A stretch of 35,388 nt of DNA from Candidatus Bathyarchaeia archaeon (GCA_050010515.1 JBEKKX010000024.1:1-35388), one strand, 5' to 3'. Numbered from the stretch's first letter, positions 8,487-18,946 are shown. Notes: a model not told the origin generated them from the letters alone. Translations and numbers: made by a program.

Positions 8487-9245
8487 TTAAGCATTAACCT
8501 TAATACCTTTAATTGCCCCGATGATTTCAGAAACCCTTTGCTTAGCATCACTCGTCTCAGTGACGTTGCCGGTGACGATTATGTCTGCTCCTGCAGAGAC
8601 AGCAGCCATTGCTTGCTCTTTAGTTCTTATTCCTCCACCTACTATGAGGGGAATTTCAAGCACATGTTTGACTACACGAATCATTTCTGGGGGCACAGGG
8701 TTTGTTGCTCCAGAACCGCCTTCAAGATAAATAAAGCGCATCCCAAGGTATTGACCTGCAAGGGCGTGAGCGGCTGCAAGTTCAGGCTTTGTATACGGTA
8801 CTGAGATCGCTTTTCCTACTACGCCAGCAGTGCCGCCGTCCCCAACGATTATGTAACCCATAGAAATAGGTTCTAAACCGTACTTTTTGACGATTGGGGC
8901 TCCAAGAATCTGGGCGCCCATGAGAAAATAAGGATCAACCGAATTCAGAAGCGACATAAACCATATGGCGTCTGCATAGCTACTAATTCCAGTTATGTTG
9001 TTTGGGAACAGTATTGTAGGAATTTTTACTGCGGACTTTATGGCTTTTACGACGTCGTCAAGGTGGGCTTGAGACGCAAATGTTGAGCCTCCAATCATTA
9101 TGGCGGCGGTTCCGCTATTTTCAGAGTTTTCAGCAATTTGCGAAGCTTGTAGGGCTGATACTTTTTCTGGGTCGATGAGGGTTATGTGGATTGAACCATC
9201 GGTTTTTATTTTTTCGAGTAAGTACTTTTCGATAGGCCCTAGCAA
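8487..9245 (-). CDS. Geranylgeranylglyceryl phosphate synthase (GGGPS)
   Basis: HITLIDPEK, IMIGGS, YLEGGSG, VGGGIR and IIVTGN motifs of the GGGPS/PcrB TIM barrel. Confidence 0.95.
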   Translation of the reverse strand: MLGPIEKYLLEKIKTDGSIHITLIDPEKVSALQASQIAENSENSGTAAIMIGGSTFASQAHLDDVVKAIKSAVKIPTILFPNNITGISSYADAIWFMSLLNSVDPYFLMGAQILGAPIVKKYGLEPISMGYIIVGDGGTAGVVGKAISVPYTKPELAAAHALAGQYLGMRFIYLEGGSGATNPVPPEMIRVVKHVLEIPLIVGGGIRTKEQAMAAVSAGADIIVTGNVTETSDAKQRVSEIIGAIKGIKVNA

Positions 9246-9261
9246 AGTGATAATCCTTCGA

Positions 9262-9531
9262 TTATTCTTTTTTTACGTTTGTTACAGGTGTTCTTCTTGT
9301 AGAACCATAAACGCGGTCTGTTAGCATACAGTAAACGTCAACTTCACCTTGGGCAGGTTTAACTGGGAATTCTTCTTTAATACCGCAACTGCTGCATTGT
9401 ACAACGGCATGGCCACCGTCTTCTCTGAATATTTCAACTCTTACTGTCTCTTTTCCGCATCTTGGGCAAGAGAAGAATTTAGGTAAACGTTTCTTAGGAA
9501 TATGAACTACTTTTTTCCTTCTTCGCCCCAT
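9262..9531 (-). CDS. elf1: Transcription elongation factor Elf1
   Basis: MGRRRKK N-terminus, LPKFFSCPRC...CSSCG zinc ribbon, EVDVY motif. Confidence 0.92.
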   Translation of the reverse strand: MGRRRKKVVHIPKKRLPKFFSCPRCGKETVRVEIFREDGGHAVVQCSSCGIKEEFPVKPAQGEVDVYCMLTDRVYGSTRRTPVTNVKKE

Positions 9532-9630
9532 TTATAACAGCCTCTAAATCGATGGTGATGTTGAGTAATATTTATGCTTGTCCTTAAATACTTGCCTAGA
9601 AACCAAGAATATGAGACTGCGTGAAGCCAA

Positions 9631-10473
9631 GTGAAGTTAACGCCTTCTGTCTTAGAAATGGATTTCTCAGAAGCTCAAAAAAGAATTTGCCGCTTTATTA
9701 AAGAGTACGTGGAAAACGCGGGAGCAAAAGGCATAATGCTTGGCCTATCAGGAGGAATCGACAGCGCAACAATAGCAGCACTTTCAAGTCTTGCAATAGG
9801 CGGAGACAATGTGTTAGCTCTTATGCTACCGGAAAAAGAAAACTTTAACCAAAAAGACATCGACGATGCAAAAGTTGTTGCAGACAAATTTAAATTGCAA
9901 ACACAAATCTGTGACATATCAAGTGTTTTAGAATGCTTCTACAAGGGTATTCCAGTGTTTGAGCCAAAAGACAGGCTTTGTAAAGGTAACATTAAAGCAA
10001 GAACTAGAATGGTTTACCTCTACTATTACGGCAACAAGCTTAACAGAATCGTTTGCGGAAGTTCCGACAAATCAGAAACAATGATGGGTTACTTCACTAA
10101 GTGGGGAGACGCCGCAGCTGACATAACGCCAATTATGGATTTATACAAAACGCAAGTCCGCAAACTCGCAATTCATTTAGGAATCCCAGAGGAGCTTGCT
10201 TTAAAACCCTCCACACCGGCGCTTTGGCCAGACCAAACTGCAGAAAACGAACTTGGAATCAAATATGAAACATTAGATCTAATTCTTTATGGGCTGGAGC
10301 GGTTTATGGCTACTGAAGAGATTGCTAATCAACTAATCATTCATAAATCAATTGTAGAAAAAGTTAAGGCCCGATGGCTCGCAAATGAACATAAAAGGAG
10401 AAATCCAATAGCCCCCAAAATTGGGTATAGAACTGTGGGAAATGATTTTAGGCTCCCAAGACATACATATTGA
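9631..10473 (+). CDS. nadE: NAD+ synthetase (synthetase domain only)
   Basis: GLSGGIDS, GNIKARTRM, GYFTKWGD, DLYKTQV and EHKR motifs. Confidence 0.96.
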   Translation: MKLTPSVLEMDFSEAQKRICRFIKEYVENAGAKGIMLGLSGGIDSATIAALSSLAIGGDNVLALMLPEKENFNQKDIDDAKVVADKFKLQTQICDISSVLECFYKGIPVFEPKDRLCKGNIKARTRMVYLYYYGNKLNRIVCGSSDKSETMMGYFTKWGDAAADITPIMDLYKTQVRKLAIHLGIPEELALKPSTPALWPDQTAENELGIKYETLDLILYGLERFMATEEIANQLIIHKSIVEKVKARWLANEHKRRNPIAPKIGYRTVGNDFRLPRHTY

Positions 10474-10486
10474 AAGTGGAAACGAT

Positions 10487-11320
10487 ATGAAAGATAAGAT
10501 AAAACTTGCCCTTGCCCAAATAAGTAGTAAACGTGAAAACAAAGAAGCCAATCTGCAGAAAATAGAAGCATTAACCTTCAAAGCCAAAGAGCAAGGGGCA
10601 GATCTAGCTATTTTTCCTGAGCTTTCATTAACTGGTTACGTGGTTAGGGATCAATTCTATGAGTTGGCTGAAACAATCCCCGGACCAACAGTTGAGAAGG
10701 TGGAGGCGTTGGCAAAGAAGACAGGGATGCATGTTATTTTTGGGATGCCTGAGTTAAGCGAAAAAACACGGGCAACAGTCTTTAACACTGCTGTCTTTGT
10801 TGGTCCCGAGGGTTTAATCGGTAAATACCGTAAAATGTATTTGCCAACCCACAGCGTGTTTGAAGAGAAAAGGTATTTCCGTCCAGGTTATCAAACAGCC
10901 GCGTTTCAAACGGATTTGGGCAACATTGGTTTATGCATTTGCTATGACCTTTTCTTTCCTGAAGTGCTCAGGCTTATACGTTTGAAGGGTGCACAATTAA
11001 TCGTTTGTATATCTGCATCTCCAGCGGTGCGTAGGAGTTACTTTGAAATTTTAACTTGCGCCAGGGCACTGGAAAACACTGCTTACCTCGCTTACGTGAA
11101 CCTGGCCGGGGTTGAAGATGGCTTGCAATTCTGGGGAGGAAGCAGACTGGTTAGCCCAGCTGGTGATGTTCTTGCAAAAGCAAAATACGATGAAGAGGAC
11201 TTTGTCACCTGTGAAGTAGATTACAGTGACCTAAGAACGGCAGAGACTTTCATTCCTACCTTAAAGGATTTGCGGCCTGAACTTTTTGATAAATTAAAAG
11301 AGTACTCAGAACTTCTTTAA
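10487..11320 (+). CDS. Nitrilase / carbon-nitrogen hydrolase, probable glutaminase partner of NadE
   Basis: Glu-Lys-Cys triad motifs FPEL, YRK, ICYD; ATG at 10487, 13 bp after the nadE stop, preferred over the overlapping ORF-track start. Confidence 0.9.
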   Translation: MKDKIKLALAQISSKRENKEANLQKIEALTFKAKEQGADLAIFPELSLTGYVVRDQFYELAETIPGPTVEKVEALAKKTGMHVIFGMPELSEKTRATVFNTAVFVGPEGLIGKYRKMYLPTHSVFEEKRYFRPGYQTAAFQTDLGNIGLCICYDLFFPEVLRLIRLKGAQLIVCISASPAVRRSYFEILTCARALENTAYLAYVNLAGVEDGLQFWGGSRLVSPAGDVLAKAKYDEEDFVTCEVDYSDLRTAETFIPTLKDLRPELFDKLKEYSELL

Positions 11321-11364
11321 GCAGGAATGTAAACGGCAGCCATTGAGAAAGATAGCGGCAAGGC

Positions 11365-11477
11365 AAATCACAAAAACATCACAAGCTCATCAAAACCCGT
11401 GATATCAAGTGACTTAATTGTAAATCACTGTGATTTCAACGTGATAGATGACGTCACGCTCCCCCTATTAACGTCAC
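11365..11477. repeat. Repeat array A: nine GTGAY/RTCAC copies with palindromes
   Basis: Copies at 11367, 11378, 11399, 11409, 11424, 11430, 11441, 11453, 11473; palindromes AAATCAC-T-GTGATTT (11422-11436) and TGACGTCA (11449-11456). Confidence 0.8.
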
Positions 11478-11794
11478 ACGCTTAACGCAGGGTATAAAAA
11501 AGGTAAGTTGTTAAAGATTACCAAAAGAAGTGCACAACGATAGTAAAGGGAACGTAAAATTGCCAACTAAAGCAGGAATATTGGGCAAGAAAGCTTTTGT
11601 AAAACTACATTTTTTATTTAAAATTTAAGATAAAGCTCGCGCCAGATATTCAATAATTTTGCCATTTATCTGTTAATTTCACTCTTTATCCCTTTAATCG
11701 GGAAAAGGAAGACGTATTTACTTTATTTTGTTGTTTAATTCATTTTTTGGCTTTATTAGTTACGGCTAACTGGTGCATTCTTACTTGGATAAGA

Positions 11795-11805
11795 CTTAAA
11801 AAGTC
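11795..11805 (+). promoter_or_regulatory. TATA-like element CTTAAAAAGTC upstream of the 11857 gene
   Basis: TATA-like sequence about 50 bp before the start; an identical 11-mer lies upstream of the next gene. Confidence 0.5.
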
Positions 11806-11856
11806 GACTCAGTATACAAAAGCGTATCCATTCATATAGTTGAGGAGACAAGGAGT

Positions 11857-12327
11857 TTGAAGCTAAAAGACGGCGTTCAAGCCTGGTTAAACGGGGCATT
11901 AAACGACCCCATTGTGCAAATATTGGCTAAAAACAGCCAATTAACCAGAACCCAGCTTGAAACACTGTTAATCGACATTTTAGCCGAGAATATTTCAGGA
12001 AAACAGCTAAAGTACGATGAAAAAGCCAGTTTAAGGCTAACCAAGGCTAAAATAAGCCGCGGATCCTTCAACAGGACGTTAAAACAGTCTAAAGAAAACG
12101 TGATAAAATCGATCTATACGATACTACTTTTAGGGTATTTAGGTGTGTTTGACAGCACAACTCTTGACCCATATCTCGAAATAGCCAATAAACTGCACGA
12201 ATATGTGGAGGCACACCAAGAGACTCCCGACAAAGAAGAGGAGCTAAAAGACCATCTAAAAGTCATAGAAATCATACGGGAAGAGCTTGAAACGAGCCTA
12301 AAACGGCTGTCTAGTCCATCAGAATAG
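11857..12327 (+). CDS. Uncharacterised helix-turn-helix protein (Tfx / sigma region 4-like pattern)
   Basis: 156 aa; SQLTRTQLETL...ISRGSFNRTLKQSKENV resembles Tfx-type HTH; hydrophobic helix IYTILLLGYLGVF; purine-rich SD-like AGGAG before TTG. Confidence 0.7.
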   Translation: MKLKDGVQAWLNGALNDPIVQILAKNSQLTRTQLETLLIDILAENISGKQLKYDEKASLRLTKAKISRGSFNRTLKQSKENVIKSIYTILLLGYLGVFDSTTLDPYLEIANKLHEYVEAHQETPDKEEELKDHLKVIEIIREELETSLKRLSSPSE

Positions 12328-12330
12328 CCC

Positions 12331-12605
12331 TTGTGACGTCACAAATCACAGATTAAATCAACGATTTTTTAACCAGCAAAGCGAGGCAATAAAGCCAAAA
12401 TATAAGCGCCACTATCAAGCCTTAAAGTTCAAAATAAGCTCAAATCAAGGATATCTCAGCAATCCATTTGTAAGGGGGTACTGCCATGAGAGGAACTGTG
12501 ACCTGTGATATCATAGTAACCATCCGCCGACATCACCGCAAACCTTAAAAAGTCCATGGATATCTGTGATGTGTGATGCAACCGATTAAATCACGCATAA
12601 ATCAC
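12331..12605. repeat. Repeat array B: ten GTGAY/RTCAC copies including a perfect 14-bp palindrome
   Basis: TTGTGACGTCACAA at 12331-12344; copies at 12333, 12338, 12345, 12498, 12505, 12532, 12566, 12573, 12590, 12601. Confidence 0.8.
12544..12554 (+). promoter_or_regulatory. TATA-like element CTTAAAAAGTC upstream of the 12620 gene
   Basis: Identical to 11795-11805; embedded among the array B repeats. Confidence 0.5.
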
Positions 12606-12619
12606 AGGGATGGAAAATC

Positions 12620-13345
12620 ATGGTTGACTTTGTAACGGTACTCTTAGGCGTTTTGCTGGCGGCCACAGTTGCATCGGCAGTTGAGTATTATAGGCAAATA
12701 CGTAATGCACAAAAAGAGTATCAGAAAGCCAAGGGTATTGTCGAAGACATTGTTCTTAGTTTTAACCGAGAGCTCAAGCGTGAAGCCGACAAATTAGACT
12801 TAATCGCTTTCAAAATAGAGGGAAACTTGGCTAAAGCGGATACAAGCCTAAAAAAAGCAGACACCTTAGAAAAAAGGATGGCGCCTATAGAAAATCAAAT
12901 TGGTACTATTTCACAGACAGTTTCACAGAGTAGTACCAACATTCTTTCAGGATTAACAGATTTAGAATTGAAGATCAAAGATATTGAAGCGTCACAAGAG
13001 ACATTAAAGGTAAAGATAGTAGGTTTTGAAGAGCAAATTCAAAAGTTCAATGTTACTCCAGAAATTAGTGAAGCCGTCATACCCATTAAACGTGATAAGG
13101 CAATGGCTGCGTTAACAGATACAGAAATCGCAGTACTGGAAATGTTATCTTCAGAGGGGCCCAAGACAGCGCCAGGGATCAAAGCCAGAGTTAAGCTTAG
13201 CAGAGAACACACAGCAAGACTAATGAAGAAACTCTATGAAGAAGGATACTTAGAAAGGGAAGTAGGCAAAATACCATTCAGGTACACTATCAAAAAAGAG
13301 ATGGAAAAGATGCTAAAGAAACCCGAAAATAGTCAGCCAACATAA
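12620..13345 (+). CDS. Membrane-anchored coiled-coil protein with C-terminal winged-helix DNA-binding domain
   Basis: 241 aa; N-terminal hydrophobic helix FVTVLLGVLLAATVASAV; heptad-rich middle; C-terminal LTDTEIAVLEML...LSREHTARLMKKLYEEGYLER...PFRYTI (MarR-like wHTH). Confidence 0.8.
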   Translation: MVDFVTVLLGVLLAATVASAVEYYRQIRNAQKEYQKAKGIVEDIVLSFNRELKREADKLDLIAFKIEGNLAKADTSLKKADTLEKRMAPIENQIGTISQTVSQSSTNILSGLTDLELKIKDIEASQETLKVKIVGFEEQIQKFNVTPEISEAVIPIKRDKAMAALTDTEIAVLEMLSSEGPKTAPGIKARVKLSREHTARLMKKLYEEGYLEREVGKIPFRYTIKKEMEKMLKKPENSQPT

Positions 13346-13665
13346 AGCTACAAAGAAGGCTTCTCTTGACCGTTCAACCGTTTCAGACGCTCATCTATCT
13401 CGCGTTAGTTTCGGTGAATCAGGAAGCCCATAATTCAACCTTGCTACACTTATCGAGGTACTCTGGATAATGCATTGAATTGATTTTCTTCTCTTACTTG
13501 ACTTCCAAGAGCTATTCTGCCTTTATCAATATAGCATTAAGCCTATGTTCCCTTCCAACGCGATCTACTTCTTTACTCCTACCCAATTGTACTCTACCTA
13601 AATACTCGCAAATTAATCCTTAGATACTAAATTTATTTTATGCTTGCGTAACTTAGCAGCCTAAG

Positions 13666-14094
13666 TCACTTTATTCTTTGCTTTATGGTTGCCTGAGAAA
13701 TGTTTGCAGTTTTATACTTTAAATTATTTGATCCACCAGTCCTTAAAAGTATACCTTTACTTGTCATCCTAGAAAGATAGGTTGAAACGGTACTAAGACT
13801 AACTGGCTCCTTAAGCTCCTGCTCATAAACGGACTGGATATCCTTTGAAGAAAACCAAATCAACGGAAAACTTTTCTGAATCACTAACTGAACTTTTTCA
13901 AAACGTGAAAGCATGCGATTTTGTAAAGAAGCACCTGTGCCTACGGTCGGACCCTCGCCCGGTGCACCGCCTAGCAATTCAACAAGATCTAAGAGCCGTA
14001 GAGCTTTATCGCGGGTTACTTGACCCTCGAAAGCAATAGTATATCGATTACCATCGCTATCGAACAGCTCAACGCGTATTTTACGAGCCGGCAT
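13666..14094 (-). CDS. Uncharacterised origin-adjacent protein: small N-terminal beta-beta-alpha domain, Gly-rich linker, C-terminal winged helix
   Basis: ATG at 14094 (MPARKIRVEL) preferred; C-terminal FSSKDIQSVYEQ...SLSTVSTYLSRMTSKGILLR is a wHTH pattern; divergent from cdc6 across oriC. Confidence 0.75.
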   Translation of the reverse strand: MPARKIRVELFDSDGNRYTIAFEGQVTRDKALRLLDLVELLGGAPGEGPTVGTGASLQNRMLSRFEKVQLVIQKSFPLIWFSSKDIQSVYEQELKEPVSLSTVSTYLSRMTSKGILLRTGGSNNLKYKTANISQATIKQRIK

Positions 14095-14116
14095 TTGGTG
14101 TGCACCACAAGGGCTG

Positions 14117-14416
14117 TTCACAGCTTTACACTTCACAGCTTATAGCTGTTATGGTGAAGGCTGAAAAGTAGAAAAGGCAATAGACAGCTTATTATTACGA
14201 AAACGCCACAATTTTCATTCTGTTCGGCATAACAAGCTTCACAATAAATCAGAATGACTGGAAAATTAAAGTTATTGCTTGATTCCGCTTTTCCAGTAGA
14301 AGCGTAGGGGTGGCTTGTTCACAGTAAAGAGACAAAAAAAATGTAATATGAAGCAAAAGCAAATAGATTAAGCGGCAAATTTAATGATATTTGACATGTA
14401 TTCACAATTTTGTGAA
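14117..14416. repeat. TTCAC/GTGAA repeats at the left edge of oriC
   Basis: TTCACAGCTT direct repeat at 14117 and 14132; GTGAA 14154; TTCACA 14238 and 14318; palindrome TTCACAA-TT-TTGTGAA 14401-14416. Confidence 0.6.
14291..14311 (+). promoter_or_regulatory. ORB element 1
   Basis: TTCCAGTAGAAGCGTAGGGGT matches the ORB consensus TTCCAGTGGAAAC...GGGG. Confidence 0.85.
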
Positions 14417-14549
14417 CGAAATTTAGAACCGCCAAAAACAAAACTCTCGAAAGGTTACTTAACTTAGAATCTCATGAGGTTATTTCTAATAAAATTTTGT
14501 CTCCATACTCATAAAGATAATTTGTCATGTTAAAAATCATCAGACAGGC

Positions 14550-14570
14550 ACCCCTATGTTTCCTGTCGAA
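14550..14570 (-). promoter_or_regulatory. ORB element 2 (inverted)
   Basis: Reverse complement reads TTCGACAGGAAACATAGGGGT. Confidence 0.82.
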
Positions 14571-14735
14571 GCCTTCAAGCAAAAAAGGAGTAAAGAAAAC
14601 ACAAGAAAAACATTTGCAGCAATTTTATCTAAAAACTTTGATAACAATTATTAATATAAAGAATTATTACTTAACTATCAGAGTATATTATCTAATTATA
14701 CTAAATAGACAATTTTGCATTAACCCAAGAATTTT

Positions 14736-14756
14736 TTCCAGTAGAAACTTTGGGGT
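14736..14756 (+). promoter_or_regulatory. ORB element 3
   Basis: TTCCAGTAGAAACTTTGGGGT. Confidence 0.9.
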
Positions 14757-14904
14757 GTGCCTTGTTCTCAATTTGCCTATTTGTTATCTGATGTTTTCAT
14801 TGTTCTTTAGGATAATTGTGCTTTAAAACCATTTTTTTGTACTACATCCTTTATCTGTTCCACAAGAAATAACGGTTGAACCTCTGAAAACGAGGGGATA
14901 GGTA

Positions 14905-16146
14905 ATGGGAAATCCAAACATATTAGACGATGTATTCGAAAGCTTCGTTAATGGAGTTCGGCTGTTTAAGGACAGAGAAGTTCTGAGGACCGATTATCTT
15001 CCTGAAAAATTACCACACAGAGAGGAACAAATAAAATTATTAGGACAAACTGTTGCGCCAGTCCTAAAGGATGCGAGATGCTCTAACATTTTTATTTATG
15101 GAAAAACTGGAACCGGAAAGACCGCGGTAACAAAATACGTATTAAGTCATCTAGAATCTAAGGCAAAGGAGTATGGTGCACCCGTAAAATTTTGTTACAT
15201 AAATTGCCGAATGACTGGTTCAGAATACCGAGTTTTCGCAAGTCTAAGCCAAAACCTTGGTATGGCTATACCTTTTACAGGCTTATCTGTTGGTGAAGTG
15301 TTTGATAGGTTCAGAGCAGGTTTAGATTCTTCTAGAATAATTTTCATAATAATTCTCGATGAAATTGATGCCCTGATCAAAGACCGCGGAGACGCTTTTA
15401 TGTACGAATTAACAAGGATAAATGAAACTCTAAGTAAGAGCAAAGTTTCGATAATAGGCATATCAAACGACCTACGCTTGAAGGAATTTTTGGATCCTAG
15501 AGTTTTTAGTTCTCTTAGCGAAGAAGAACTAGTTTTCAGGCCATATGACGCAGCTGAACTTCGAAACATTCTTCTTGAACGTTCAAAATTATCTTTCCAC
15601 GAAGGAGTTTTGTCTGATTCAGCATTAAATATTTGCTCAGCTTTGGCTGCTGCAGAACATGGCGATGCGAGGCGAGCTTTGGATTTGTTGCGTGTCGCTG
15701 GAGAAGTTGCTGAGCGACAAGGCGCTAAGTTGATTACAGAAGAGCATGTACGTCAAGCAGAAAAGCATATTGAACACAACCGAGTGGTTGAAGCGCTCAA
15801 AAATTTAACATTGCATTCAAAACTGGTGCTTCTTAGCGTCTATCACTTGAACAAGCCAAGTGCTACTACAGGCGAAATATACGATGTTTACAATGAACTG
15901 TGCGGCGAAATGGGTGCTGGCCTTCTGACACAACGTCGATTAGGCACGCTAATTAACGAGCTTGATTCCATGGGACTTGTGAACGCGAAAGTTGTAAGTA
16001 TGGGGCGGTATGGCAGAACCAAAAAAATCAGGCTTGAAATTTCAAGAAGCCTCATAAAGGATGTATTTGGCAGTGATAACAGATTTGGCAGCTTACTCGA
16101 TTATTCCCTGCAATCCTCGCATAAAGGATCAAGTGATACTAGCTAA
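14905..16146 (+). CDS. cdc6: Orc1/Cdc6 replication initiator
   Basis: Walker A GKTGTGKT, Walker B IILDEID, GDARRALDLL, C-terminal wHTH with SMGRYGRT. Confidence 0.98.
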   Translation: MGNPNILDDVFESFVNGVRLFKDREVLRTDYLPEKLPHREEQIKLLGQTVAPVLKDARCSNIFIYGKTGTGKTAVTKYVLSHLESKAKEYGAPVKFCYINCRMTGSEYRVFASLSQNLGMAIPFTGLSVGEVFDRFRAGLDSSRIIFIIILDEIDALIKDRGDAFMYELTRINETLSKSKVSIIGISNDLRLKEFLDPRVFSSLSEEELVFRPYDAAELRNILLERSKLSFHEGVLSDSALNICSALAAAEHGDARRALDLLRVAGEVAERQGAKLITEEHVRQAEKHIEHNRVVEALKNLTLHSKLVLLSVYHLNKPSATTGEIYDVYNELCGEMGAGLLTQRRLGTLINELDSMGLVNAKVVSMGRYGRTKKIRLEISRSLIKDVFGSDNRFGSLLDYSLQSSHKGSSDTS

Positions 16147-16160
16147 AAACCGCTGGAAAA

Positions 16161-17720
16161 TTAGTTAAATGAGAGAATAGTAGTCTCCAACGTTTGCAAG
16201 TTTACTACTGGAACTTTTCCCGGTGTAGGAACCAACCCTAATTTCTCCATGTAATCAGTCTGTTCTTGCCAACCGCCTGAATTCACAACCAGCACTCCAC
16301 GATAATTGCAGTAACCTAAAACGTGAATATGCCCGGCATGAAAGATGTCTGGAACCCTATCGATAACTAGGTAATCACGGTTTTCTGGGGACAACATGGT
16401 TTTTCCACCGTATACTGGAGCTAAGTGGCGGCTTTGCATAAGTAGCCTCATTGCCTTTTCTGGGTGCTCATGATCCATTCCAGGTATAACCGCGATAATA
16501 TCATCTAAACTGCGACCATGATACATTAAAACTTCTACACCATGTAGACTTAACAGGCATGGGCTCCCAACAGAATGAATGTTCTTTTTACCTTGCATTC
16601 CAATCAAATAGCCTTCAGGTATGGCAGGCTGGGGTAAAGCTTTGCGTGACGCATCATGATTACCTGGGGAAATAATTATTTCAATATATTCAGGGATTTT
16701 TTCCAGATATTTCGCAGCAAAATTGTATTGTTTATGAACATCTCGTATGGATAGTTCTTTTGCTTGGTTGGGGTAAACTCCAACTCCGTCAACAATGTCG
16801 CCTGCGATTAATACGTATTTTACTCTGCTTGCTATTTCCTTCATTTGCTCGTTTCCATATTTTCCCTTAAGCCAAAGTATGAATCGTTTGAATGCTTCTT
16901 TTTGGAATTTGGTGCTGCCAATGTGAAGGTCTGATGTTAAGACAGCGTAAACTGGTTCTTGGGCTCTTTGTTGGGTTTTTCTACCTATTTCAGGGAAAAT
17001 TATATCCTCAGCTAGGAAAAGGTTACTTCTTGTTTTTATCACTGCCAAGCATACTACCTGGTCCTGCAAAAGAAGGAGCGCTTTTTTGCGGACTTCTTCT
17101 GGTGCTTTTTGAGGCACTAAGACAGTTGTGCTTCCTTGCAAGTCTTCAACTGATAGTATCATTTGGTTTTTTGATTCTCTTTTTTCTGTTATCATACAGA
17201 TTATTTTGAGTTTTGTTTTAGCTGGTGATTTGAGTGCTTCTAGTATTGGTGTTGCAGCTTTAACGTCGATTCTTTGTCTTAGCAAGCGTTCGATTCGTTT
17301 AAACCTGTCCTGGAAATATTCCAGATATTCTTCAAGGGTGCCGTTGGAGCTAAGTTTGCATGTTGAATCTTCCAGAATGTTAATGTTTGCTTTTATGTCC
17401 TTGGCGTAGGGATAAAAAGTGCTTTCGACTGTACTTATTTGCTGTGGTGCTGGTGGCTCTACGGCGTTTTGCTGTTGCTGAGGCTGTGTTTCTGTGGCGG
17501 GTGCTGTTAGCTGTTGCACCAAGGTTTCTAAGAATACTTTGTCTATAAAGAACGGTTTTTCTTGCAAGCCGGCTATCCTTTGAAGTGCTAAGTTTATAAT
17601 GCCAACTGGATCGGTTGTGTCTGAGTTTTGGCTTAAGAATTCAAAGGCTTCGCTGTTTAGTTGGTATCCTGCTGCGATTGTTGCTTCGATTGCTTTTTGT
17701 AGTTTTTCTTTTTCGCTCAT
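16161..17720 (-). CDS. polB: DNA polymerase D small subunit DP1 (proofreading exonuclease)
   Basis: OB fold plus metallophosphoesterase motifs SDLHIGS, AGDIVDG, PGNHD, YHG, HLAP, GHIH. Confidence 0.97.
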   Translation of the reverse strand: MSEKEKLQKAIEATIAAGYQLNSEAFEFLSQNSDTTDPVGIINLALQRIAGLQEKPFFIDKVFLETLVQQLTAPATETQPQQQQNAVEPPAPQQISTVESTFYPYAKDIKANINILEDSTCKLSSNGTLEEYLEYFQDRFKRIERLLRQRIDVKAATPILEALKSPAKTKLKIICMITEKRESKNQMILSVEDLQGSTTVLVPQKAPEEVRKKALLLLQDQVVCLAVIKTRSNLFLAEDIIFPEIGRKTQQRAQEPVYAVLTSDLHIGSTKFQKEAFKRFILWLKGKYGNEQMKEIASRVKYVLIAGDIVDGVGVYPNQAKELSIRDVHKQYNFAAKYLEKIPEYIEIIISPGNHDASRKALPQPAIPEGYLIGMQGKKNIHSVGSPCLLSLHGVEVLMYHGRSLDDIIAVIPGMDHEHPEKAMRLLMQSRHLAPVYGGKTMLSPENRDYLVIDRVPDIFHAGHIHVLGYCNYRGVLVVNSGGWQEQTDYMEKLGLVPTPGKVPVVNLQTLETTILSFN

Positions 17721-17974
17721 TTTGATCGTGTTCTTGTTAGCAAGTGGGTGAGTGCATGCTTTATGTTTAGGCTCTTATGCTTTTGCGTTATTTACTGTTT
17801 TTTGTTTGCAGAATAAATTTTTGAAGTTTAAGGGTTCTGTTGATTTTATTGGTGAAGTATGCTAGCGTTTACTGTAGCGTTGATTACGTATTAATCGTTA
17901 ATTATTCAAAATCAACTTAGTTTATATAAACGATCTATAGTTTAGATATGTTATATCTCGTCTGGGGTACTATT

Positions 17975-18946
17975 ATGGATGAATTACGCAAAGTTCAACA
18001 AACACCAACCGGCACTTTTTTTGTTTGTTTGCCTAGAGCTTGGGCTCAACAGAATGGTTTAAAAAAAGGCGCTTTAGTGAGTGTGAATGTAACTAGTGAT
18101 GGCAAGCTTATTGTTGATTCTGAGTACAATGTTGAGCAGCAGCCGAGAATTGCTTCTTTAAATGTTGGTCCTTACTTGGGTCGGGAGATTATTGGTCGTT
18201 ATCTGCTTGGTTATGACGTGATTCGTATTGAGGCAAAGGACCGAATAGCTTATGACGTTAGAAACACGGTTAAATCAACGGTTACTTCACTGATTGGATT
18301 AGAAATTGTTGAAGAAACGTCTTCAGCAATAGTTTTACAGTGCTTACTGGAACCATCTGGATTTTTGCCTGAAAAAATTTTGCAACGCAACTACGCTATT
18401 GTCGCTGGGATGATTCGTGACGCTACTAACTCTTTTGTTAGTGGTGATCTGCAACTAGCTAAAAGTGTTATAGCAAGAGATGACGAAAGTAACAGGTTAT
18501 ATTTTTTATTAGTTAGAATCTTACGAACAATAATTCAAAATCCACGTTTAAGTGAGAAGCTAAGGATTACTCCGATAGACTGTTTAGATTATCGTTTGGC
18601 TGCAAGTTTAATTGAAGGCATAGGTGACGCATGTGTTCAGGTGGCTACAAAAACCGTAGCACTCGATGGAGTGAAGCTTTCTGGGGAAATGCAGAAATTA
18701 CTTGTTGATTTGCAAGCTGTCTGTTTTGAAGCTCATGAGCAAGCGTTGAAAGCGTTTGTAACTAAAGACATCTCTTTAGCTGAGCATGTACGCGACCTCC
18801 GAGGAAAAATGGATTCAACTTACTCAAATATTGAACGCGTCGCAAAAGATTCCTCTATAGATTTGATGCCTCAAGTTCTGGCAGCTGTATCTTTCCTTAG
18901 GCAGATTTATGAACGCAGTGTTGACATGGCAGACTTAGTCGTTTAA
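17975..18946 (+). CDS. phoU: AbrB-PhoU phosphate uptake regulator
   Basis: RKVQ...VCLPRAWA AbrB-like N-terminus and two PhoU repeats; ATG at 17975 preferred, about 45 bp after TTTATATAAA (17921-17930). Confidence 0.88.
   Translation: MDELRKVQQTPTGTFFVCLPRAWAQQNGLKKGALVSVNVTSDGKLIVDSEYNVEQQPRIASLNVGPYLGREIIGRYLLGYDVIRIEAKDRIAYDVRNTVKSTVTSLIGLEIVEETSSAIVLQCLLEPSGFLPEKILQRNYAIVAGMIRDATNSFVSGDLQLAKSVIARDDESNRLYFLLVRILRTIIQNPRLSEKLRITPIDCLDYRLAASLIEGIGDACVQVATKTVALDGVKLSGEMQKLLVDLQAVCFEAHEQALKAFVTKDISLAEHVRDLRGKMDSTYSNIERVAKDSSIDLMPQVLAAVSFLRQIYERSVDMADLVV

Follow-up and report, generated by a model that had tools for sequence, protein, structure and literature searches.

Which factors other than initiators act at an archaeal replication origin, and does any of them help to position or separate the chromosome? 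To our knowledge, very few non-initiator factors have been described at archaeal origins, and we know of little on chromosome positioning and separation in archaea outside Sulfolobales. The question is raised by the window analysed here, one entire contig (C24, 35,388 nt) of the 66-contig, 2.38-Mb genome (2,379,893 nt) of a Candidatus Bathyarchaeia archaeon (GCA_050010515.1). In it, three uncharacterised open reading frames (ORF1, ORF2 and ORF3) are located between a NadE/nitrilase-family pair and the pair encoding the initiator Orc1/Cdc6 and the small subunit of PolD (DP1), beside the predicted origin, oriC (Table 1). A preliminary description of this region had counted 19 GTGAY/RTCAC and 7 TTCAC/GTGAA repeats in and around the spacers of the trio and had read the whole as one system that loads on the arrays and links the origin to the membrane. 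The trio and both sets of repeats were confirmed, and the counts and coordinates given for them proved correct. The interpretation as a whole was partly supported: in place of one system loading on one array, three motif vocabularies were found, one per gene. We favour, while giving it somewhat less than an even chance, the reading that the trio forms a module that flanks the origin, is old and vertically inherited, and encodes three small proteins with site-specific DNA binding, each directed to private sites unique to the locus.

The spacers of the module are, as had been remarked, unusually long. They measure 536 nt upstream of ORF1 (intergenic spacer IG1, listed as the longest of the window), 292 nt between ORF1 and ORF2 (IG2), 320 nt between ORF2 and ORF3 (IG3) and ~810 nt between ORF3 and cdc6 (IG4), against a median gap of 76.5 nt among 37 greedily called genes. 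Nine GTGAY/RTCAC copies lie in IG1, all of them within 11367-11477 (array A), and ten in IG2, at 12333-12605, with 1, 2 and 1 further copies inside ORF1, ORF2 and ORF3, respectively. Over the genome as a whole, 5454 copies in 2,379,893 nt give a mean of 2.29 per kb. Clusters of at least four copies within 150 nt numbered 26 genome-wide, headed by the two arrays of the window with 9 and 7; the sole other cluster of seven or more was a CTCACT low-complexity run on contig C12. Save for this run, the arrays are thus unmatched elsewhere, in line with the earlier expectation of clusters only near oriC. No regulon signal was visible in the rest of the genome, where the 10-bp palindrome occurred 4 times against 3 for its control and 9 of the 12 direct pairs of 7-nt spacing fell outside the locus against 6 control pairs.

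Alignment of the window with 12 relatives (13 sequences) yielded a footprint in which conserved islands fall on the motif elements in all three spacers while the intervening DNA drifts. The islands upstream of ORF1 match the sites of array A exactly, 380-490 nt from the gene. In IG2, the layout S1/S2/TATA/S3 is fixed in 14 spacers across the order, with S1 (GTGAYRTCAC-nn-RTCAC) at or overlapping the ORF1 stop codon and S3, present across the order, forming the best-conserved 40 nt of the spacer (column identity 0.80-0.95). S2 and S3 are inverted or palindromic sites of operator type, and they bracket the conserved TATA-like box at ORF2's own predicted promoter. A further conserved block, AAATAAGCTCAAA, occupies 12431-12443 between S1 and S2 and is not part of any of the three sets.

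The protein that had been credited with an N-terminal transmembrane (TM) helix and a long coiled coil is ORF2. Its Kyte-Doolittle 19-residue mean reaches 2.12 at residues 1-19 and stays at or below 0.74 elsewhere, placing the helix at about residues 4-21; a positively charged, strongly conserved juxtamembrane motif follows, and then a variable, coiled-coil-like middle. The C-terminal winged helix-turn-helix (wHTH; residues 165-224) matched MarR at 27.3 bits (cut-off 24.6) and HTH_27 at 24.6 bits (cut-off 22.2), and fell narrowly below the cut-off of TrmB (23.9 against 25.6 bits); Pfam and NCBIfam scans gave matches of MarR/TrmB/Lrs14 type only. The match covers ~50-60 residues, without the dimerisation helices of MarR or the C-terminal effector domain of TrmB. 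As only ~3 residues precede the helix, ORF2 has no outside domain, and a TM helix devoid of an extracytoplasmic domain resembles an anchor rather than a sensor.

Which of the three proteins would read the GTGAY sites is suggested by their distribution. The composite pattern GTGAYNNGTGAYRTCAC occurs once in this genome and gave 73 matches in 49 of 151 genomes of the class, where its reversed control gave 0. All 72 matches for which ORF1 was located lie within 636 nt of that gene, 43 of them within 50 nt, and the 73rd lies 771 nt from ORF2. ORF2 is present in 49/49 genomes positive for the pattern, and none of the 48 genomes negative for ORF2 carries it. Likewise, among 20 class-level loci a GTGAY cluster (at least 5 copies in 120 nt) was found in 13/13 positive for ORF2 and in 1/7 negative for it, the latter seven retaining ORF1 in 7/7 and ORF3 in 6/7 cases. 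This co-occurrence points to ORF2, and not to ORF1 or ORF3, as the probable GTGAY reader. Recognition of such half-sites by a domain of this kind has a precedent in TrmB-family wHTH proteins that recognise TATCAC-N5-GTGATA (PMC4706686).

ORF3 is transcribed divergently from cdc6, across oriC, and starts at 14094 (MPARK, with GGTG 6-10 nt upstream), a start common to its orthologues, 13 of 15 of which begin MPA[RK]K. A helix-turn-helix (HTH) or wHTH had been proposed for all three proteins; this was borne out for ORF2 by the MarR cut-off and for ORF3 by a fold model, and is weakly supported for ORF1. The ORF3 model shows a beta-beta-alpha unit joined through a disordered linker to a wHTH (pLDDT 77-88 in the wHTH, 69 overall), with BlaI/MecI, Fur and ArsR-type repressors as best fold matches (E ~3e-3) and Penicillinase_R-type matches only in Pfam and NCBIfam scans, and supports the wHTH assignment at the level of a prediction. 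The possibility that ORF3 is a stand-alone Cdc6 winged helix was considered, given sub-threshold Cdc6_C matches in 7/15 orthologues, but was dropped at a profile-profile (hhalign) probability of 0.2%.

The repeats had also been described as running into oriC, which did not hold for GTGAY and did hold for the TGTGAA set, interleaved with origin recognition box (ORB) elements. Seven TTCAC/GTGAA copies lie in 14117-14416, giving 21.5 per kb over 14095-14420 against 2.27 per kb in the genome, and of 14,504 genome windows of 326 nt, taken with half overlap, just 3 hold six or more copies. In that stretch of the origin spacer, the strongest 6-mer enrichment is that of TGTGAA (6 copies against 0.18 expected, P = 3.5e-8). 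Two copies lie downstream and one upstream of the TATA-like palindrome of the ORF3 promoter, the others on both sides of ORB1. The label of predicted oriC appears reasonable in view of the ORB-like repeats of this spacer and the AT-rich stretch (14570-14733) between the inverted ORB and ORB2. In six Nitrosotalea-like loci, the 6-mer that ranks first between ORF3 and cdc6 is TGTTAA (8-10 copies, with 0.4-0.8 expected); it differs from TGTGAA by one base, and the layout, over the ORF3 promoter and interleaved with ORB elements, is the same. Such a shift, with ORF3 still beside cdc6, would fit co-evolution of ORF3 with its sites. Two more conserved stretches were seen in this spacer, CAGAGTATAT at 14680-14690 within the AT-rich origin core and a strongly conserved block of ~55 nt (TTTTTGTACTACATCCTTTATCTGTTCCAC...) at 14835-14890 just upstream of cdc6, which is probably the cdc6 promoter or operator.

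The third vocabulary belongs to ORF1, whose probable start site is covered by the palindrome GTATACAAAAGCGTATCC, conserved across the order and matched a single time in the whole genome. By a strict pattern, the GTATAC palindrome was found in 10/20 class-level loci, some of them without ORF2, and in Nitrosotalea-like loci it reads TATACAgatTTGTATA immediately before the ATG. Pfam and NCBIfam scans assigned ORF1 to no family, and a search with its structure model gave no fold match at E <=0.001; sigma-region-4 chains appeared at probabilities of 0.2-0.35, so that this likeness is a lead only. Searches of PDB sequences with ORF1 and ORF3 profiles gave nothing below E = 0.05, and prediction of an ORF1-ORF2 complex scored 0.00, which was used neither for nor against binding. 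With starts picked by nearest position, ORF1 appears to begin with TTG in 14/17 orthologous loci, which may point to deliberately weak translation initiation.

The module is widely conserved. Among close relatives, the arrays are kept in 49/49 loci with all five anchor genes (49 of 53 loci, L029, L054, L055 and L063 being left out as truncated), with 7-11 copies in IG1, 9-19 in IG2, 0-3 in IG4 and 0-1 in IG3 where this is short. At the level of the order, 11 loci from other families keep the arrays and the arrangement ORF1-ORF2-...-ORF3-oriC-Cdc6-DP1, the NadE side being rearranged. Across the class, ORF1 is a single-copy gene found in 120/151 Bathyarchaeia genomes (87/95 of high quality) and ORF2 is found in 103/151, and Cdc6 lies inside the 20-kb locus in 17/20 class-level loci from ~19 other families. 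A phylum sample gave ORF1 in 105/201 and ORF3 in 132/201 genomes, and in at least 63 of the 86 phylum genomes with both genes on one contig, from at least 16 families, ORF3 lies 241-1049 nt from a cdc6 match, a lower bound since 231 further Cdc6 matches fall outside the set compared. The statement in the preliminary description that similar genes flank cdc6 in Nitrososphaeria was confirmed. Seven loci of one family (f38) keep the order GGGP synthase-ORF1-ORF2-ORF3-Cdc6-DP1 seen here, with Cdc6 present in six and the seventh reaching the contig end; one of their ORF3 homologues, with 80 listed relatives titled Nitrosotalea, Nitrosotenuis, Nitrosopumilaceae, Thaumarchaeota or similar, has the same sequence as the one in a record under the title Candidatus Nitrosotalea devanaterra. 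Thus, the orthologues are linked to cdc6/oriC, and the arrays are present in relatives and not equally dense elsewhere, as a module tied to the origin had been expected to behave.

Copies of the GTGAY sites are also found within coding sequence (CDS). In sister families (L066-L071), an aminotransferase gene is placed between the nitrilase gene and ORF1, and part of its CDS matches the array A core (ATCAC-n-GTGAT-N6-GTGAY-nn-GTGACGTCAC) element for element. These loci hold 3-5 GTGAY/RTCAC copies ~620-660 nt upstream of ORF1, in the opposite-strand aminotransferase CDS (...SLIT.KSRVI...), in the order and spacing of the array A core, with fewest copies in L068 and L070 and most in L069. The copies may be binding sites maintained in the gene, and the genus of the window has lost the aminotransferase and retained the sites. 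An aminotransferase remnant in IG1 was considered and rejected, as tblastn with the L068 enzyme matched five other contigs and nothing on C24. Nitrosotalea-like loci, for their part, show GTGAT runs in the 3′ end of the ORF1 CDS and ATCACGTGAT within the CDS of the ORF2 wHTH; in L103, L105 and L118, this palindrome encodes Thr-Ser-Arg-Asp with identical codons in 3/3 and more ATCAC nearby, and four GTGAT copies stand at the 3′ end of ORF1.

Table 1 Features of the origin-flanking locus (positions in the window; S1-S3, composite GTGAY/RTCAC sites).
Feature	Position	Strand	Description
NadE (NAD synthase)	9631-10473		
Nitrilase-family gene	10421-11320		
Array A	11365-11480		9 GTGAY/RTCAC half-sites, including palindrome ATCAC-T-GTGAT (11424-11434) and GTGAT..GACGTCAC
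ORF1 promoter, TATA-like box TTAAAAAG (inferred)	11796-11803	+	Conserved island in the 13-sequence alignment; same box type before ORF2
Palindromic element GTATACAAAAGCGTATCC	11812-11829		GTATAC-N6-GTATCC; over probable ORF1 start site
ORF1	11857-12327	+	156 aa; all-helical; no Pfam family; possible sigma-region-4-like HTH; apparent TTG start
S1	12333-12349		Composite GTGACGTCAC-aa-ATCAC, 6 nt past ORF1 stop codon
S2	12498-12514		GTGAC-ct-GTGATATCAT; mirror image of S1, ~30 nt upstream of ORF2 TATA-like box
ORF2 promoter, TATA-like box TTAAAAAG (inferred)	12545-12552	+	Position kept between S2 and S3 in 14 aligned spacers
S3	12566-12605		GTGAT-gt-GTGAT-N12-ATCAC-N6-ATCAC, between TATA box and ORF2 ATG
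ORF2	12620-13345	+	241 aa; N-terminal TM helix, juxtamembrane motif, coiled coil, MarR/TrmB-like wHTH
Frameshifted relic, C-terminus of HerA-like ATPase gene	13351-13484	-	Three tblastn pieces against L025 protein residues 472-515, joint E = 1.45e-6
ORF3	13666-14094	-	142 aa; beta-beta-alpha unit, linker, C-terminal wHTH
ORF3 promoter region	14117-14158		TTCACA, TTCACA, palindrome ACAGCTATAAGCTGT (TATA-like), GTGAA; column identity 0.86-0.93; conserved across order
TTCACA site	14238-14243		~50 nt left of ORB1; conserved
ORB1-like element TTTTCCAGTAGAAGCGTAGGGGTG	14289-14323	+	Abutting TTCAC at 14318-14322; repeat families D4, D15; conserved
Inverted pair TTCACAATTTTGTGAA	14401-14416		GTGAA/TTCAC set; column identity 0.88; relatives usually with one more TTCAC
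Inverted ORB-like element (GGCACCCCTATGTTTCC...)	14546-14570	-	Inverted repeat I20; conserved
ORB2-like element	14734-14770	+	Direct repeat of ORB1-like element
Orc1/Cdc6 initiator gene	14905-16146	+	Cdc6_lid 1.1e-25, Cdc6_C 6.1e-25
PolD small subunit (DP1)	16161-17720		

From this anatomy we infer which protein would bind which site, and with it autorepression, membrane tethering, a role in segregation and any effect on the origin. ORF2 would sit with its N-terminal helix in the membrane, project its coiled coil into the cytoplasm and place its C-terminal wHTH on GTGAY half-sites. Since these bracket its promoter, with S2 upstream of the TATA box and S3 over the start site, ORF2 would repress itself. 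The same sites recur at the ORF1 stop codon (S1) and in array A, so that their occupancy could form a membrane-held nucleoprotein patch of ~1.25 kb, 1.5-3.5 kb from oriC. ORF3, on the TGTGAA sites of its own promoter and around ORB1, could modulate Orc1/Cdc6, and ORF1 would bind the GTATAC-N6-GTATCC palindrome of its own promoter. Autoregulation, by ORF2 through S2 and S3 and likewise by ORF1 and ORF3 through their own elements, is the best-supported of these functions and the most secure to be drawn from the layout; an added role in anchoring the origin to the membrane is plausible. The private sites, the sensor-less ORF2, the sites away from promoters and the maintenance of the block beside oriC argue for a structural output on origin-proximal DNA. 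Taken to its furthest extent, this would be an anchoring and gating device for archaeal origins, free of any ParA/SegA motor and common to Bathyarchaeia and ammonia-oxidising Nitrososphaeria, in which ORF2 homologues would pin the unique, centromere-like GTGAY patch to the membrane and ORF3 homologues, on TGTGAA or TGTTAA sites around the ORB elements, would couple Orc1/Cdc6 activity to anchoring, a proposal that we put forward as rather unlikely.

Several observations weigh against an origin-tethering module. IG3 and IG4 hold 0 GTGAY/RTCAC copies by motif count of the window, so the arrays do not touch oriC, and all GTGAY arrays and composite sites of the genome are confined to ~1.25 kb (11365-12605). 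Whole Bathyarchaeia families lack ORF2 and the arrays and still have ORF1 and ORF3, which makes the ORF2 part dispensable. In 23 of the 86 phylum genomes, no listed cdc6 match lies within 2 kb of ORF3; among the matches listed, ORF3 is non-adjacent to cdc6 in the Thermoproteota families f44, f46, f51, f57, f58, f61 and f65. The co-occurrence counts run across kin and are not independent, and the structure models are of low to moderate confidence, that of ORF1 (pLDDT 60) being poor and that of ORF3 reaching 69. Coding constraint may explain part of the pattern embedded in coding sequences, and an unlinked aminotransferase paralogue on contig C1 also holds a 4-copy GTGAY cluster. No partition ATPase is encoded on C24, as the preliminary description had noted for ParA/SegA: genome searches with PF13614 and PF01656 matched ~8 loci, on contigs C1, C3, C9, C15, C27, C42, C49 and C55, and no such ORF occurs in 9000-18000. 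Together, the 1.25-kb patch, the GTGAY-free oriC, the unlinked ATPase and the losses of ORF2 argue against equating the module with known segregation systems. As S2 and S3 lie on either side of the TATA box and probable start site of ORF2 in the manner of an autoregulatory operator, binding might serve autoregulation only, and plain autoregulation fully explains the promoter-bracketing layout.

That last point leads to a purely transcriptional circuit, possible if somewhat unlikely in our estimate, in which three autoregulated factors stand beside oriC by inherited gene order, the arrays are operators and nothing more, the distal ones serving looping, with no part in architecture or segregation, and ORF2 is a membrane-tethered regulator, freed for instance by proteolysis or titrated at the membrane. 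Besides S2 and S3, the palindrome and the TGTGAA copies over the ORF1 and ORF3 promoters speak for it, as do the regulator-type folds or families of all three proteins and the existence of membrane-bound archaeal regulators, ArnR/ArnR1 of Sulfolobus. Moreover, the wider neighbourhood (GGGP synthase, a zinc-ribbon gene, NadE, PhoU) is syntenic too, so that linkage to cdc6 may be inertia. On the other hand, searches beyond the locus gave no site for any of the three vocabularies, which would leave such a circuit nothing but itself to regulate; a sensor domain is lacking in ORF2; sites are kept where no promoter is obvious, at the ORF1 stop codon, 400-500 nt upstream of ORF1 and within CDS; and TGTGAA/TGTTAA copies reach beyond the ORF3 promoter to both sides of ORB1. 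That the repeats are chance, compositional or coding by-products and the ORFs unrelated neighbours is extremely improbable. A half-site of just 5 nt, copies in CDS that can come from Ile-Thr or Ser-Arg-Val codons, and the C1 paralogue would suit such an origin, but the clusters are ~36-fold denser than the genome mean and rank top genome-wide, the sites are conserved one by one while their flanks drift, and the composite pattern (73 against 0 for its control over 151 genomes) has every measurable match at the locus.

The extension of the candidate ORF3 motif into the origin suits an explanation by replication control, which we consider unlikely and in which ORF3, possibly with ORF1 and ORF2, would modulate the binding of Orc1/Cdc6, the firing of the origin or the expression of cdc6 once per cell cycle, the membrane anchor sequestering the newly replicated origin, in likeness to the CtrA/Spo0A boxes of bacterial oriC or to UBP-ucm. 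It draws on the closeness of ORF3 to cdc6 across the phylum, on a candidate motif found on both sides of ORB1 in the window and throughout the spacer between ORF3 and cdc6 in six Nitrosotalea-like loci, and on a Sulfolobus precedent, in which an essential motif of the origin is bound by a protein other than the initiator (PMC12141716). It has against it that the motif is a short 6-mer and a putative ORF3 site, that ORF3 shows no specific relationship to the winged helix of Cdc6, and that the block upstream of cdc6 at 14835-14890 carries none of the three motifs. Replication control also overlaps with, rather than excludes, the module of privately targeted DNA-binding proteins that we favour.

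IG3 has a history of its own. An intact HerA-like/NurA-like pair occupies its position, in operon with ORF3, in 7/11 order-level loci, and 10/53 close loci have a gap of 2.6-2.7 kb there; the intact HerA-like protein with which the relic was compared is that of L025. The frameshifted HerA-like pieces in the window indicate that its 320-nt IG3 is the scar of a deleted pair. With L025 queries, the pair was found in 0/20 class-level loci outside the order and is hence not part of the core module; it was considered as the missing motor and rejected, there being only a relic in this genome and none in those 20 loci. A hidden small gene or RNA in IG1 was dropped as well, as the ORFs of 11480-11790 are all of 47 aa or less with column identities of 0.33-0.5; a TATA-like run at 11493 is not conserved, and an Rfam scan of 11000-15000 (E up to 1) gave two sub-threshold chance matches to microRNA families only. 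In L107, L109, L116 and L121 (f46, f51), an ORF1 homologue is followed by an overlapping short ORF2-like protein of ~150 aa with no Cdc6 within 10 kb, so that the ORF1-ORF2 pair persists after linkage to the origin is lost. Elsewhere in the genome, C25:21316-22416 encodes a second Orc1/Cdc6 paralogue, 29% identical to that of the window, and may mark a second origin. Two fully syntenic loci of Bathyarchaeia type, L020 and L059, carry the titles Candidatus Acidoferrum sp. and Methanocella sp., and their contigs are probably mis-binned or mislabelled.

The protein families of the module are uncharacterised, occur in single copy almost throughout Bathyarchaeia and have near protein clusters that are all labelled 'hypothetical protein' in Atlas; a full-text search of one literature collection, covering main texts, found no paper on the trio or its motifs. 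The same order recurs beside cdc6 in relatives, among them globally important ammonia oxidisers in culture, which makes the question directly testable in Nitrosopumilaceae cultures. If the anchoring and gating proposal were true, it would describe the first such device for a chromosome origin in archaea. If the module is only a regulatory circuit, its three candidate protein-motif pairs, with a one-base motif divergence between classes, would offer a clean system for the evolution of recognition.

How does the module compare with known systems? In ParR-parC of plasmid R1 and at the SegB sites of Sulfolobus SegAB, one DNA element acts both as autoregulatory operator and as centromere. Like these, the GTGAY arrays are short repeats flanking the promoter of the gene for their presumed binding protein, and clustered sites of specific type beside the operon, a feature of ParABS and SegAB, are present here as 19 half-sites in two spacers. 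Unlike them, the module has no linked ParM, ParA or SegA partner, its proteins are of wHTH rather than ribbon-helix-helix or ParB type, with no ParB-type (HTH plus CTPase) or SegB-type protein among the three ORFs in Pfam and NCBIfam scans, and it is chromosomal and vertically inherited class-wide. The Thermococcales regulators TrmBL1/Tgr (PMC4706686) share with ORF2 the glycolytic motif TATCAC-N5-GTGATA as a near relative of its putative sites and a domain for which ORF2 falls just below the TrmB cut-off. They differ in that ORF2 has no sugar-binding domain and carries its wHTH C-terminally, behind a TM helix and a coiled coil; in the half-site spacings, an abutting palindrome and 7-nt and 11-nt direct pairs here; and in scope, one locus here against a regulon of dozens of sites.

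The closest functional analogues would be RicO-ricS of Staphylococcus aureus (bioRxiv 10.64898/2026.03.06.710092) and RacA-ram of Bacillus subtilis, although ORF2 falls outside those families by Pfam (MarR/HTH_27/TrmB-like). In both, as in ORF2, a single polypeptide unites site-specific DNA binding with a coiled coil and an element directed to the membrane; both act on origin-proximal sites, as ORF2 would, and need no dedicated ATPase. The order of the elements is mirrored in ORF2, with the TM helix N-terminal and the wHTH C-terminal; its anchor is a true transmembrane helix, as opposed to an amphipathic helix or a DivIVA contact; and, unlike in RicO and RacA, the domain is of MarR/TrmB type, the host is archaeal and the function is a predicted one. 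The nine ricS sites are spread over ~700 kb whereas the GTGAY sites lie within ~1.25 kb at ORF2's own locus, which weakens the parallel: no further array was found in the 2.38-Mb genome, and the same confinement holds in the 49 composite-positive genomes. For ORF3, the comparison is with UBP-ucm of Sulfolobales, described as a strand-swapped, beta-rich saddle protein with hundreds of sites genome-wide (PMC12141716). ORF3 does not share its fold, being a wHTH with a beta-beta-alpha unit, most similar to BlaI/MecI, Fur and ArsR-type proteins, and its gene is fixed beside the origin. The likeness is one of placement: in both cases the motif ascribed to a non-initiator protein lies between or beside the ORB elements of an archaeal origin, here as conserved TTCACA/TGTGAA copies at 14238, at 14318, abutting ORB1, and at 14401/14412.

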